Assembly: GCF_018977255.1 (NCBI RefSeq)
Contig: NW_024704742.1
Location: 131,256,001-131,320,000, forward strand
DNA: 64,000 nt
Direction of reading: 5' to 3'
DNA from: Callorhinchus milii
Lineage: Eukaryota
Made by a program: the position numbers and the translations under genes. The notes beneath the pieces are model-generated. The model had not been told where the DNA came from. It made no database searches and was given only the letters and a program-made list of their open reading frames with translations. Below, in pieces: positions 976 through 64,000 of this stretch. Position 1 is the stretch's first letter. Each line of letters starts with the position of its first letter.

Positions 976-3259
976 TACGTAATCATATGTAACAGGAAGG
1001 CGGAAGGGTGGGTACTCTGGAAACATGGGATTAAATGGGCCAAAGCCTTGTGATCCTGTGAACTCCCTTGGAAGAAATTACAGCTTAGAGAATTGAAATT
1101 CCACCTAGTCTCAGCCTGTAAAACAGTATTATCTCTAAGTATACGATTACATAGAATTTTGGAAAACTCTTAAATTCAGTTTTCATTTGGGAGCCAACAT
1201 CTTTTTTAAAACCATAACCTCCAAATAAAGGCTGAATTTAAAAACCCTAAGCAGTGTTGTGCCATCTTAAGCTTTAAGCCAAAATGGTCTCACAGGCTAA
1301 AGCTGTGAAGCCCTTTTAGGCATCCTCCCAACCTGAAAGTCGCTATATGAAATGGAAAGATTATTATTTATTACAACTGCTGTGCGCATTTGGCTGCCGC
1401 GTTTCTCCCACAAAATACACAGTCAATCCACTCTACAGTATATTCTGTCAAGTGCTTTAAGATGTCTCAACGGTGTTGGTAAGGCGCTGTATCAAATGCA
1501 AGGATTATAATTAGCATTATTACTATTTATTCCATGGAATCAGCTTGCGCTCAGTAAGCCAGAGAAAAAAGGGATGTGTGTGACTTGCTGATGGGTATGT
1601 GGTGGTGGGGGGGAGGGCGAAAGGGAGAATGGAGAGAGGGTGAGGAGGGAATGATCTCTCTGTCAACTCACCGATGTACAAGTCTCAGACATGAGTTAGA
1701 ATAAAGGAACAAGCCATTTCACCATGGACTGGTCTTCAAAATAAGGCTCTTATCTGGTCCCAAAAAACATGCTAAAAGCCTATTTAGTGTACACTATATT
1801 ATGTCAAATTTGCATAATCATTGCGCACCATAATTTTAATAATGATTTCTAATGGGTTTTAGCAGCTTTGTGTAACTCGGTTTCCTGATATGATAAGACC
1901 ATTGACTTGCTGACTGGCGTCAGAAGCTTTTTAGTGGAACAGTTCTGCAGGCAATGTTTTTTTCCGGCTCTTCAAGACACGTCTAGGAGCTTTGCACGTG
2001 TGCCAGGAGATAAAAATGGGCGATTGGTTCACATTTCCCTTTGATGTGACACGTGGCCGCTGCACTGTGTCGTTTGCTGCTGACAGGCTCTCATTGTATA
2101 ACTGTACTTTGACGTGTGGAATGCTGCGCTGATGTTTAACGGGCCTTCCTGCTGGCCGTTTGCCTACACAATTACACAGTCACTACACACACCCTGCAAT
2201 TAAATCCCGTGAAGCGCTTTGAGATGTCCTTCTGACGTGAAAGGGTCACATCAAATGCACAGATTATTATTAATTATTATCCTTCCATTTGATATGCAAC
2301 AACAAATTACATTTGTATAGCGTGTTTCAGGTTGGAAAGATGTCCCAAGGCGCTGGACAGCCAGGGATATGGACCTGCCTTGTACAGTGAGTGCCTTATC
2401 ATGCACTCGAAGTGAATTGATTGTGTATATGTAGGCGAACGAGGCAGAACAATTGCGCACAGCTATGTCTCACACACAGCCTTTCAGTGAGTGACTGATT
2501 TTATTTTGCGGGGTGTGGTGGGTGGGGGACAGGATTATTGTTGGCCAGGACATAAAACGTAATTAACATGAAAGCTGTGGCCTGAGCCTATGCATGGTTT
2601 GCTCTGAGCAATGCGGACTGTTTATATGAAGCTGACGCACTCCCCCCGCCCGTCTTCCCCCCACGCCCAAACCTCACACACACAGCGAGCGCTATCTTCC
2701 TCCTCGTCTAGGGAGCAGCATCAAAGGAAATCTGAAATCCAAGATCTAGGCTGAATTTCTGGAGTTCAAAGGGACTGGCTCAAATCCAAACCTTTGTTTG
2801 ACTTGCTATGGATTTACCCAGGATTTCATTATAAATCTACCTCACCACCACCACTGTCATCGCCCAACAAAAAAAAAGTAAAATTTTTGATAGAAAAATT
2901 GCGCTTTTCAAAGGCTGTGGATAAAAATGTGACTGATCACTCTCCAGGCTTTCGGTACGTGTTCCTGTGATCTTCTTAGACTTTTGAAACTATTTTATTT
3001 CCTGGGGAATTACATTGCTATTTCTTAGAGTTTCTTAGAGATTTCTGCACTGAGCTTTACATCTTAAGAGGAGTAAACCTCACCCTTCATATAAACTCAC
3101 ATACCCACAACCTGGTCATGCCCTTAACCTCGTTATCACCCTCGGCCTTGACATTTCCAACCTCAGCATAGTGGACAAGGCCATCTCGGACCACTTTGTC
3201 ATCTCCTTCTCCTTTCACATCCCTCACTTCTCCACCAAGCCCTCAACCATCCTCTACCA

Positions 3260-3438
3260 TTCTCTTTGACCGTGCCTTCAGCTCCCCTCTCGACTCTCTA
3301 CCCCCTCCTCGCTCCCTCCCTTCCCTCCCCTCACCCTGACCATTTCCCCCCTGCTCGGGTCCTGACCCAACTGTACAGCGCCTTGGGGCGTCCTCCCGAC
3401 GTGAAAGGCGCTCTATAAATGGAATCTTGTTGTTGTTG
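3260..3438 (+). mobile_element. L2 3'-end fragment nested inside the larger L2
   Basis: Ends in the CAGCGCCTTGGGGCGTCCTCCCGACGTGAAAGGCGCT...(TTG)n tail; TACCA duplicated at 3255-3259 and 3439-3443; removing it restores TILYHPWKRL. Confidence 0.9.
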
Positions 3439-4228
3439 TACCACCCTTGGAAAAGGCTACCCCCTGAGACCCTCACAAATGCCCTCACATCATCAAACAT
3501 CCTATCCCTCTGGCCTTCCACCTGCTGAGATCCTGAAGCAGCCATCCAGCTGCTCCATGATCGCCTCTCCTCCACCTTCAACTCCCTCGTCCCCCTAAAA
3601 TCCATGACCATCTCCAAACCCACCCGATCCCCCTGGTACAACAACCATCTCCGACGCCAAAAAAACCAAACCTGGCTGCTCGAGGGCAGAAAACTAGCCT
3701 GACAATCCACCGCCAACTATGCCTCGAGCATCTCCACAGCTACTGTTGTTCTTTGACACGCACAAAAACGGCCTTTTACTCCAACATCATCTTGGAGGCT
3801 AAACACAACCCTAAAATCCTTTTTTCCACCACCCACTACCTCCTCCGTGCCTCCCTTCAGGCCTCCTCAATCTTCATATCAAATGCAAGGAGATCATGGA
3901 CTTCTTCTCTTCTAAAATACTTAACATCCGCCAGGCAGCCTCATACGCTTGCCTCTTGTCACCCACCACCACTCCCTCTCGTCCCCCTCACCCTCCCCAT
4001 CATCTGTTCCCACCACCACCCACATCCTACATTCCTTCCTCCCCATCTCTCCCTCCTCCCTCTCACCGACCATCATCTCCATGAAACCCACCACCTGCTG
4101 TCATCACCCCCCTCCTCAAAAAACCTTCCCTAGATCCCTCAAACCCCAGCCACTACCGCCCTATTTCTAACCTGACCTTCCTCACAAAAGTCCTGGAACG
4201 CGTTATTGCCAATCAATTTCACGCACAC

Positions 4229-9081: not shown

Positions 9082-9515
9082 TTATAATAACATTCCTTGC
9101 ATTTGAAATAGCATTTTACCACACATTGTCAAGACCTCTCGAAGCGCTTCACAGGATTGTACTATGATGTGTAGTGACTGTATATTTGTAGGGAAACGCG
9201 GCAGCCAGTTTTGCACACAGCAATGCCTCACAAGCAGTCATGAAATGAATTACAAACTTTATATTGGGAGATTTTTGGCAGGGACGCCATGAGAAATTCC
9301 TTTCTCTTTTTGAATTAGCGCCATGGTGTCTTTGACGTTCACCTGAACAGGCAGACAGGACCTCGGTTTGAACATCTCATCTGAAGGACGGCATCTCCGA
9401 CAATGCAGCCCTGCACTGCACCTCATTGAGCTGTCAGCCGAAACAGTGTGTGCTCAAAGTTCCACTACACTTCTGACTCAGTGGCGAGAGTGCTACCAAC
9501 TGAACCAGACTCACA
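9082..9515 (-). mobile_element. Deu-domain tRNA-SINE (family 1), near full length
   Basis: Tail CCTTGCATTTG...AAGCGCTTCACAGG, Deu core CACCTGAACAGGCAGAC, head GAGAGTGCTACCAACTGA. Confidence 0.85.
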
Positions 9516-20412: not shown

Positions 20413-20728
20413 ATAATAATAATAATCCTTGCATTCGATATAGCGCTTTCTCACATCTTCTAGACGTCTCAAAGCGCTTCACAGAATATACTGTAAAGTG
20501 AATTGACTGTATATTTGTGGGTGAAACGCGGCAGCCAATTGCGCACAGCAGTGTCCCACAAACAGTGGTGGATTGAAATGACCAATTTCATTATTGTTTT
20601 TTTTTTAAGGATTATTATCAGGCATGGGGAGTAAGGAAACTTGCTCAAGGTTTTGCCCTGCTGGGAACTGAACCCAGGTCTCTCGCTTGCGAGGTGAGCG
20701 CACTAACCACTGAGCTACAGGAACTCCA
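20413..20728 (-). mobile_element. Family-2 tRNA-SINE, short form
   Basis: Reverse complement closely matches 16083-16400. Confidence 0.9.
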
Positions 20729-53344: not shown

Positions 53345-53647
53345 TAATAATAATAATCCTTGCATTTGATATAGCGCTTTTCACGTCTTCTCGACGTCTC
53401 AAAGCGCTTCACAGAATATACTGTAAAGTGAATTGACTGTATATTTGTGGGCGAAACGTAGCAGCCAATTGCGCACAGCAGTGTCCCACAAACAGTCATG
53501 GATTGAAAATGGCCAATTTTTTTTGGAGGGATTATTATTAGGCGTGTGGAGTAAGGAAATTTGCCCAAGATTTTGTCCCGCCTGGAATTGAACCCAGGTG
53601 TCTCGCTTGCAAGGTGAGTGCTCTGAATACTGAGCTACAGGACTCCA
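53345..53647 (-). mobile_element. Family-2 tRNA-SINE, short form
   Basis: Near-identical to 16083-16400 and 20413-20728; anticodon loop CT-TGC-AA. Confidence 0.92.
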
Positions 53648-61068: not shown

Positions 61069-61315
61069 GCTGGGAGCAGTTGAGCAGCCGGTACAAGATA
61101 GATATTAATTTCCACTTCCAATGTCCCTTTGCTTTTCTCCTGTTATATGTGATGAGTTTGGCCATGTGCTGGTTATATTTCTTGCTGTATTTACAAATGT
61201 CAATACAATAAATATCTCTATCAACACAACTGAGCTTCACAGGCTTCTTAATTCGAGATTGTTGTTGGGACGTCCTTGGGACATCCTCCGACGTGAAAGG
61301 CACTATACAAATGTA

Positions 61316-61548
61316 CAAAAGGCAAAGCACTGCAGATGCTGGAAATCTGGTGTAAACACAGACGTTACTGGGAACACGCAGCAGGTCAGGGAACATCCAT
61401 GGAAAGAGGAAAATGAGCTAACGTTTCAGGTCAATGATCTTTCATCAGAACTGGCGAAAGCTCATTGACCTGAAACGTCAACTAATTTTCCTCTCTCCAT
61501 GGATGCTGCCTGACCTGCTGCGTGTTCCCAGTGACTTATGTGTTTATG
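61316..61548. mobile_element. Palindromic Penelope-like (pLTR-derived) insertion with 13-bp TSD
   Basis: Inverted arms 61353-61448 / 61451-61546; CTATACAAATGTA at 61303-61315 and 61549-61561; lies within an L2 tail. Confidence 0.85.
61416..61452 (-). ncRNA. Minimal type-I hammerhead ribozyme motif
   Basis: AGUU-CUGAUGA-A-AGAUC(AUU)GACCU-GAAAC-GUU-AGCU: core boxes, stem II with one mismatch, 4-bp stem I, reduced palindromic stem III. Confidence 0.65.
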
Positions 61549-64000
61549 CTATACAAATGTAATTTGTTGTTGTGTAAGATGTGTTGTTCCGCCAGTCAAT
61601 GAGCTGATGTAATGAGTCAGACACCATCACTACTCCTTAGCCTATTGATCTCAAGCTGCTGAGAGGACTCCTGACAAGGCTCAATCCAGTCTGTACCCAT
61701 CAACTGATCTGGGCCCACATCTTAAATCCTGGAGTAAGGAAACTTGCCTGACGTTTCATCCCACTCACCCAGAAACGCTCGCTTGCGAGGCGAGTTTGAG
61801 ATTACTGGTATATTTGAGATTAGCAACTGCCTTGTTGAGCTACCACTGAAGGCCAGCAAGAATGCTTTCCATATGAAATCCAAAAAATAAAAATAAAAAG
61901 CAGGAGATAAAAAAAAATTCCCTTTGCGAAGAAGCTACAGTAAACTAGCTGACCATCAGGCAACAATGAATCGAGAGTATAAGTTTAATTCACAAAGCAC
62001 CTATTTTGTTAAATTTGGGCTTACACTGGGTTTTAGTTCAACTTTCTGACAAACATAAACATTCATACTATTGACACATCAAAGATAATGCTGATACTTA
62101 TTTATTATTATTATTATTATACTATCACTCGCGGGTGATGGACGATGTTTACCGTGTTCCAGAACATTCAGATCTTTTTAGTCAATGCCGTTATAAAGGT
62201 AACGAGAGGCCTGACATATTCCCTGAAACACTGGCGTCAAAAATTGAAACCCGCTGGGCAGAGCAGACCCTCTGTCTCTGCCTGGTCCTGTAGCAAAACA
62301 CAGTTGTCAGTGACTGAATGTCTGTGTAAGTCAATGTGACAAAGACAAAGACAACATATGTGTCTATGTGTAGGTGTTGCTGCACTCACGCTATTTTCCA
62401 CCTCAAATTCAACGCTGAAACTGTTCTCCATAAGGCGCTTGTTTCAAACCCTGGGAATGTTACAGAAACTCTGGCACACATGGAAAACAATGCAAGATGC
62501 AAAGTGATGATTATCATTTCTTCCCACTCTCCGCGCCCCACCACCACCCCCTTGGTTTTCATGTTTTCTCTGTTACTGAGGAAGCCAAACACATTGCTCA
62601 TTATACAACAAGGAGTACTAATAGTACTAGATGAGCACATCATTTATAAAGTAATGCAAAGACTATTTCTGCAATTGCACCAAATTCCTAGTCACTACTA
62701 CTGAAGGTAAGGCTCGCTGCAAGGAAGTGATGGTTAGTGTACTCAAGCCAGGGGAGCACAGTGCAGGCACAGAATAAAGCTCCCTCCTTCTAAAAATAAA
62801 TATGTTTATTTCCCTTTTTAACTGTCCTGTGCGTGTCTGAATGAGATTAGCAGCTTATATAGAGTGATACGGCAAAGAAATATGCCATTCGGCCTAACTA
62901 GGCCGTGCCAAGCCCAACTAGTCCATGCAATGCAGTAAGTCCAATTTACTGTTGAATTAAGGATGGTTTTGTCTTGTGAATCCATACTCTCTAAGAAATA
63001 ACTGGAGCTAATGCAAGCTTCTTGAAGTCTGGTTGCAAAACTCTAACGTGTAGCGACTGTCTGTAATTTGCAGCAAACGTGGCAGCCAATTTGTGAACAG
63101 CAACGTCCCACAAACAACCATGAATCAATTTTAATCAATTTTATCTGGGTGGGATCATTCGTCAGGGCAACCAGGAGAAACTCCCTTTCTCTGTGAGAAG
63201 GAGGAATGGGTGGGGGAGAGTGAAAGGAAGTGAAAAAGAGAAAAAAAGAGTTTGAAGACGAGGAGGTGGGGGGGAGGGATAGAAGATGAAAGATTCAAAG
63301 GAGTGAAACTGCGACGGGGAGGTACATATTTTATTATAAGTTATAGCTTTCAAGTTAGATTTATTACTTTATTAATCAAAGTCAATTTCTATGAAGTAAT
63401 CCACTGATGTAAGAAAAAGACGCTGAATCAGTCTTTTTTACCCCCATCAATATGATCCAGGGTTTGTACTGTACACCAGGCCTTTCATTCTGGATTTAAT
63501 CCAAATCTAAAACGAATTCTCACTAAGAGTCCTAGTTGAAATCATTTGCATTGGCTTTTTGGTTCCTTTCTTGGGCATTAACATTGATGTAACGTGAGAG
63601 AGAGAGAGAGCTACCGGGGCAACTGTAGCAAAGACAGGCATCTCGAGAATTTGACACCAGAACACAGCAAAAATTGGAGAAATTGTATTGGGTGACTAAC
63701 ACACGTTTGCTAGAGTCCAATGCATATCCTTCAACTCTGGCTCAGTAAATGATGTACAACATATGTAGTTTTACATATACTGTAGAGCCAGCACGGAAGC
63801 AGAACATTCTAGTCCTTGCCGGTGTTTATACTCCACATAGGTCTGACGTCTTTGTGCAGGTTATATAATTCCTCCTAAAATTGAGGGAGTATAACCATCC
63901 CATAGGCAGAAGAAGCAGTGTGGAAAACTTTGGCAGATAGATACAAAGTAGTGGGCTAATAGTAATAATCATCATCATCATTATCATCTTTGCCTTTGAT

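Follow-up and report, generated by a model that had tools for sequence, protein, structure and literature searches.

The palindromic insert at positions 61316 to 61548 of a 64,000-nucleotide stretch of Callorhinchus milii DNA (NCBI RefSeq assembly GCF_018977255.1, contig NW_024704742.1, positions 131,256,001 to 131,320,000; hereafter, the window) almost certainly comprises two head-to-head, 5'-truncated pLTR copies of a Neptune-type Penelope-like element (PLE), that is, a PLE inversion stump. Its history is best explained, with good though not full confidence, by one insertion that involved two separate reverse transcriptions, the product having been dead since. As part of this explanation, we propose that the hammerhead was uncut in the templates used and had no role in this copy.

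Architecture and Insertion Site of the Palindromic Insert

The insert is flanked on the forward strand by an exact 13-bp direct repeat, CTATACAAATGTA, at 61303-61315 (left) and 61549-61561 (right), which substantiates the perfect target-site duplication (TSD) reported in the earlier note. Arm 1 (61316-61454, minus strand) is a 5'-truncated pLTR copy with a PLE 'tail'; it covers family positions 1-139, numbered from the end of the tail, and its inner end lies 2 nt past the inferred +1. Arm 2 (61451-61548, plus strand) is a 5'-truncated pLTR copy without the tail and covers family positions of about 36-133. The two meet at a centre junction (61451-61454, no strand assigned) where CTG(G) is common to both. 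The mutually complementary portions (61353-61448 and 61451-61546) are 96 nt each, 88% complementary, and separated by a 2-nt gap, exactly where they had been placed. The description of the whole insert as a palindrome of about 233 bp, however, applies to the arms and not to the tail (61316-61351, minus strand), which is 36-37 nt long, present on arm 1 alone, unpaired, and outside the palindrome. The orientation of the two hammerhead motifs had been given as tail-to-tail, whereas they diverge from the centre and are head-to-head. Folding energies of -150 and -143.6 kcal/mol were predicted for the two strands, each with a z of about -19 relative to 200 shuffles, and a transcript would be expected to form the long hairpin that had been anticipated.

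The insertion split a host 3' tail fragment (61274-61575, plus strand), as indicated by alignment across the junction, which we take to be of L2 type on the basis of neighbouring ORF remnants. When the insert and one repeat were deleted in silico, the best in-window L2-type tail match was 93% over 56 nt, and 94 of 119 L2-type matches from fetched loci spanned the restored junction; excision thus recreates an L2-type tail, as claimed. The window contains about 20 more tails of L2 type and several remnants of L2/CR1 ORFs, and the insert is its single copy of such an inverted pair.

A second inverted repeat (61471-61499 and 61730-61758) was considered and rejected as a chance likeness to another repeat. 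The minus strand of 61716-61800 holds a high-copy SINE-like fragment whose GAAACGT...TTTCCTT gives rise to this likeness, and similar sequence follows a tRNA-like head in a fetched locus (L119). ARAGORN called tRNA-Ala on the minus strand at 20653-20724 and 53574-53643, possibly SINE heads.

Hammerhead Motifs at the Locus

A minimal type-I hammerhead motif was identified on the minus strand (61416-61452), with an intact core, a 4-bp stem I that includes one U.G pair, one stem-II mismatch, and a predicted cut between 61420 and 61419. The second motif (61451-61483, plus strand) carries an A6-to-G change, which falls inside the CTG(G) arm overlap, together with a stem-II mismatch; it lacks the 5' strand of stem I and is predicted to be inactive. 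Both reads agree with the earlier note, coordinates included, although the stem-II mismatch, which affects the same pair in both motifs, is absent from it. The identification of these motifs as minimal type-I hammerheads is also borne out by the family pattern, in which the core boxes, stems I and II, and the palindromic 15.2-16.2 positions are all present; arm by arm, it holds for the minus-strand motif (core kept, one stem-II mismatch) and fails for the plus-strand motif.

Infernal searches with Rfam models, a check proposed for the ribozyme call, returned no hammerhead match at the locus, where generic hairpins below threshold were the sole hits, or in one family copy with intact stems. This is as expected for minimal motifs without stem III. 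The family majority motif is predicted to favour an alternative fold (-9.1 vs. -6.0 kcal/mol). Cleavage as a dimer had been put forward for such motifs; since the two motifs lie on opposite strands, they cannot dimerize in one transcript. Moreover, each transcript has one sense motif, the antisense partner of which is made first, and the sense motif would therefore be buried in the hairpin. No cleavage by this copy is predicted, and its hammerheads, inherited and damaged, would be trapped within the hairpin of -150 kcal/mol.

Parent Element and Its Lineages

In longer copies, the hammerhead unit is contiguous with a pyrimidine-rich 3' UTR and, beyond it, an ORF with reverse transcriptase (RT) and GIY-YIG endonuclease (EN) domains; this contiguity supports the Penelope-like origin that had been suggested. 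Motifs of the parent ORF include DKG, YIDD, and a CX4CxxC linker that precedes the C-terminal GIY-YIG endonuclease. Pfam models matched decayed fragments (RVT_1, E = 1.6e-5; GIY-YIG, E = 9.5e-4), both below the curated cut-offs, and gave no match to the first two short EN fragments that were searched. Twenty longer relatives were found as proteins, and all six named ones are from rays, skates, and sharks. A CX2-5CxxC linker is reported to mark Neptune and Nematis and is described as missing from Penelope and Poseidon (PMC8557442). The parent has such a linker ahead of the EN as well as a CCHH motif in the EN, both characteristic of Neptune. The Neptune assignment, as read from sequence, depends on this linker and EN motif, with Nematis having the linker too; Poseidon was dropped as a clade label once the CX4CxxC linker was found. 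In the EN search, query position 36 was a common 5' boundary, which reflects only where the query copy is truncated.

In seven copies, the tail is continuous with the ORF start, which places the end of the tail inside the RNA that bears the ORF; the ORF appears to begin about 45 nt after the tail. In four loci (L305, L300, L307, and L036), the likely start codon is directly preceded by a pyrimidine tract and an AG, which together look like a 3' splice site; a leader intron that used this site could remove part of the hammerhead unit, and no donor for it was identified. In another locus (L061), open frames at 2739-3692 and 9107-9454, which resemble exons of a RanBP2-like gene, flank a sense-oriented PLE fragment.

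A general hammerhead pattern returned 1918 matches, compared to 46 for a reversed control. Among 26 distinct motifs whose rows were pre-selected on the core, the first stem-II pair was A-U in 12 and G-C in nine, essentially one change between two lineages, and the variable stem-I pair was U-A in 15 and U.G in 11. The sister lineage with G-C in place of A-U is abundant. Its copies (e.g., L266, L269, L274, and L287) have the stem II GGGUC/GACCC and TTAAAAG upstream at the same spacing, and many likewise begin at the edge of the hammerhead; L272 and L278 seem to represent additional lineages. At non-CpG sites, copies differ from the family majority by 5.6% on average, and the family is old.

Variation of Arms and Junctions Among Genomic Copies

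Searching the C. milii genome with the insert yielded 3265 first-look candidates, of which 40 were scored; the 28 best loci that are distinct have both outer ends in common and differ in their centres. For arm statistics, 170 loci were found by the tail-side sequence alone, 157 of which were distinct and 156 of which were kept (one was misaligned). This sample takes in tail-bearing copies, with tailless-only insertions lying outside it, and two of the searches favour the subfamily of the copy studied here. An inverted second arm was detected in at least 80 of the 156 copies, a lower bound given that very short second arms are missed. With about half of the sampled copies inverted, the insert is not the 'one-off PLE inversion' that had been entertained. 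In 56 of the 80 inversions, the second arm begins somewhere within family positions 30-40. A TSD was identified in 46 of the 80 inversions and 17 of the 76 other copies, compared to one of 80 in a shifted-boundary control; TSDs are 9-20 bp long (11-15 bp in 52 of 63) and 73% AT.

Among 70 close pairs, 69 junction types are distinct. The tailless arm is longer in 31, the tail arm is longer in 14, and the two are about equal in 24, and arm ends are uncorrelated (Fisher p = 1.0; rho = -0.09). Collectively, the distinct junctions and uncorrelated arm ends indicate that the hairpin is remade at each insertion rather than copied as a unit. Copies share their outer ends but almost never their centre junction, and the alternative of a non-autonomous palindromic family, retrozyme- or MITE-like, is not supported. 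The arms of one copy agree at a subfamily mark (position 42) in 96% of 75 comparisons (49% expected), and their mean identity across the family is 87%, with 86.6% in the present copy.

At position 100 (61415 and 61484 in the window), G is replaced by T in 22 of the 106 arms that have A at position 98 and in none of the 65 that have G there, against a G-to-T background of about 2%. The variant occurs in several subfamilies and is discordant between arms (TT in two, GT or TG in 13, GG in 23) and unrelated to arm divergence; an RT error hotspot, mixed source RNAs, or a DNA hotspot are possible explanations. At the centres of four copies (L040, L054, L198, and L008), the filler is made up of small segments of the hammerhead region that were copied again, which suggests several rounds of priming or templated end joining. 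Near-identical flanks identify several groups of loci (L101/L104, L289/L290, L294-L296, and L302/L303/L306) as segmental or tandem duplications and not as new insertions.

A Recurrent 5' Boundary at Hammerhead Stem I

Arm ends are concentrated at the hammerhead edge: 97 of 236 lie before position 131, 116 lie at 131-139, and 23 lie beyond. The stop rate at 131-139 is therefore 0.83 (116 of the 139 arms that reach position 131), compared to 0.02-0.14 per 9-nt bin elsewhere, including 0.08 and no pile-up in the bin of the cleavage site. The same stop was observed in 39 of 76 single-arm copies. Stopped ends are spread over positions 132-138 rather than fixed at one base, and positions 134-137 form the 5' strand of stem I. 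In 36 copies that read through the boundary, TTATAAT (15), TTATAAA (four), or TTAAAAG (three) is found at -29 (22 of 36), and the TATA starts at -28 relative to the A of CCAGTTC. The initiator (Inr) consensus is YYANWYY, which CCAGTTC fits. Where native sequence ends at this A, the non-native base before AGTTCTGA is G in 14 of 23 cases (p = 3e-4 versus 25%); for ends one base in (11 of 37) or one base out (none of 15) G is not in excess, but it is found in five of 10 that lie two bases out. Four of the 14 are accounted for by overlap with the other arm, snap-back of the cDNA on stem I could account for several more, and a copy of the RNA cap is a possible source of the excess. Of seven copies that bear the ORF start, one begins at 137, five are shorter, and one is longer.

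The TATA-like box at -28, the Inr-like motif, and the possible cap-derived G lead us to favour, on sequence grounds and with modest confidence, a stop that reflects run-off at the transcription start of the RNA. Less likely, though deserving real weight, is that the same PLE stump ends at a boundary other than the start: a processed RNA end, a block to RT at a 3' splice site (CAG|UUCUG), or an edge protected by an RNP or the hammerhead and trimmed by a 5' exonuclease. The boundary is preceded by a branch-point-like sequence, a pyrimidine tract, and CAG, so that it is also readable as a 3' splice site, and in Drosophila virilis helix I is reported to be where an intron located 46 nt after the start ends (PMC4209133, PMC2377424). 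The spread of ends over several bases also fits a boundary of this kind. However, none of the 116 stopped arms continues into upstream exon or element sequence, no good splice donor was found within 550 nt, the TSD lies within 3 nt of the end in five of nine TSD-bearing single-arm copies that end at 131-139, and the G excess falls at the predicted +1, all of which argue against it. In the literature covered, which lies outside most subscription papers and repeat databases, we found no account of an end pile-up at stem I. What the analysis adds is the quantified recurrent boundary at hammerhead stem I; the layout itself is already published.

Proposed Mechanism and Alternative Origins

In the mechanism that we propose, the GIY-YIG endonuclease would nick both target strands about 13 bp apart, and each 3' end would prime cDNA synthesis on the element RNA from either of two internal sites, one at the tail end and the other 36-37 nt further 5', with the tail on arm 1 as the likely span between them. 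Where start sites in the 5' leader are used, each cDNA would run off the 5' end of the RNA; this end is likely a TATA/Inr start whose first base, the A of CCAGTTC, is also where stem I begins. Blunt or microhomology-mediated end joining, in many cases with templated filler, would then connect the ends of both cDNAs; in this copy, synthesis would have continued up to, or close to, the RNA 5' end, and the cDNAs would have been joined via the CTG overlap. In vitro, an anole Poseidon element is reported to nick and extend both strands from two internal RT starts with the tail between them, the tail being equated with the gap between start sites, and hammerhead cleavage is described as not required (PMC11167929). 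This precedent is of the Poseidon clade and not of Neptune, which counts against the proposal, and later central deletions in palindromes could be the source of asymmetric, unique junctions. Even so, two independent RT events remain, in our judgement, the likely origin of the arms. A broader generalization is offered tentatively, as somewhat short of probable: most insertions of this PLE would be run-off products, primed on both nicked strands from leader sites and copied to a capped 5' end at the first base of stem I, with the hammerhead as the uncut first structure of the mRNA.

An origin from a single cDNA that reaches the RNA end, folds back, is copied to the tail boundary, and is resolved by the endonuclease, with later central deletions giving unique junctions, seems unlikely. 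Self-priming with EN resolution has been proposed earlier (PMC3846280, PMC8557442), stem-I complementarity occurs at some junctions (L214 and L255), some copies are perfect palindromes, and the arms share subfamily marks; furthermore, tail arms end short more often in inversions (41 of 80) than in single-arm copies (27 of 76), which counts against two RT events. Yet 31 of 70 tailless arms hold inner sequence absent from the tail arm, up to about 300 nt, and arm ends are independent of each other; discordance at position 100, a variant for which several origins are possible, is soft evidence in the same direction. We regard as highly improbable the view that the insert is a non-autonomous, ribozyme-bearing palindrome that is transcribed and copied whole. 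The many first-look candidates, the shared outer ends of the top 28, and the recurrence of a few junction strings (L001, L009, and L012) could be taken to favour it, and the centre junction string of this copy is also found in L009 and L012. However, the recurring strings are in different subfamilies (L009 belongs to another than this copy), the short arms are without a promoter or upstream TATA-like element, and the predicted hairpin would bury the motif. The arrangement is inverted and not tandem, TSD length is variable and not fixed, and arm identity at the family mean gives no sign of maintenance. Still a little less probable is co-option of the insert as a functional hairpin, such as a small-RNA source, or as a ribozyme. 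The hairpin is predicted to be very stable, and generic miRNA-precursor models match it with scores below cut-offs; against this, its divergence is the family average, both motifs are damaged, and, as a weak argument, no exact match was present among the long RNA-run contigs listed. Contigs from two sequencing runs match this copy in its left flank and in arm 1, and none spans the whole stretch. The insert is likely dead now.

Comparison With Known Systems

An inverted 5'-truncated pLTR with a one-sided tail of 30-40 bp and a TSD is described as standard for EN+ PLEs (PMC3846280, PMC8557442), and an inverted short pLTR, a one-sided tail within that range, and a TSD of variable length were all found here. 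As reported for Pen2a of Adineta vaga (PMC3846280; PMC8557442), the pLTRs are head-to-head, the tail is on one arm, and the TSD surrounds the unit; the hammerhead in the pLTR and the TATA and Inr-like motifs likewise have counterparts noted for EN+ PLE insertions in these accounts. Unlike Pen2a-type insertions, those examined here have no ORF between the arms, which are about 100-140 nt long, and a sharp recurrent 5' boundary at stem I is quantified. The Poseidon element PAc of Anolis carolinensis, as described in PMC11167929, resembles the present family in its two internal start sites that flank the tail, both-strand extension, AT-rich targets, and uncut hammerhead templates. It differs in that the parent here has the Neptune-type CX4CxxC linker, and the ORF start, reported to lie inside the hammerhead in PAc, appears to be about 45 nt past the tail here.

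The motifs match the minimal PLE hammerheads described in PMC4209133 in CUGANGA, an extra unpaired base, stem II, GAAAC-GU-H, the palindromic ACGU, and a 4-bp stem I. Opposite-strand pairs of minimal hammerheads 100-700 bp apart are known from the same source; in contrast to these, the motifs here abut and are both damaged, and the first stem-II pair in this lineage is A-U and not G-C. Non-LTR retrozymes (bioRxiv 10.64898/2026.07.22.740005) are similarly described as pLTR-derived, hammerhead-bearing, and non-coding, but as head-to-tail tandems with a motif per unit, whereas the insert is an inverted opposite-strand pair; head-to-tail units with a complete hammerhead in each were not found in it. 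Nor do the family copies have the common internal junction and fixed-length TSD of a MITE-like element.

Implications

Hairpins of this kind are liable to be annotated wrongly, whether as miRNA precursors, as MITEs, or as double ribozymes. The copy studied here is a fossil. The statistics gathered across the family are relevant to the route by which PLEs produce head-to-head pLTRs and one-sided tails, as well as to the role of the PLE hammerhead, and they speak against antisense self-priming as the main route. They also yield testable predictions: the RNA should start at CCA+1GTTC with the ribozyme uncut, and short cDNAs of about 100 and 137 nt should be made from both strands. If the run-off reading is true, thousands of genomic stumps would record both the transcription start of this PLE and its two-primer integration in vivo.
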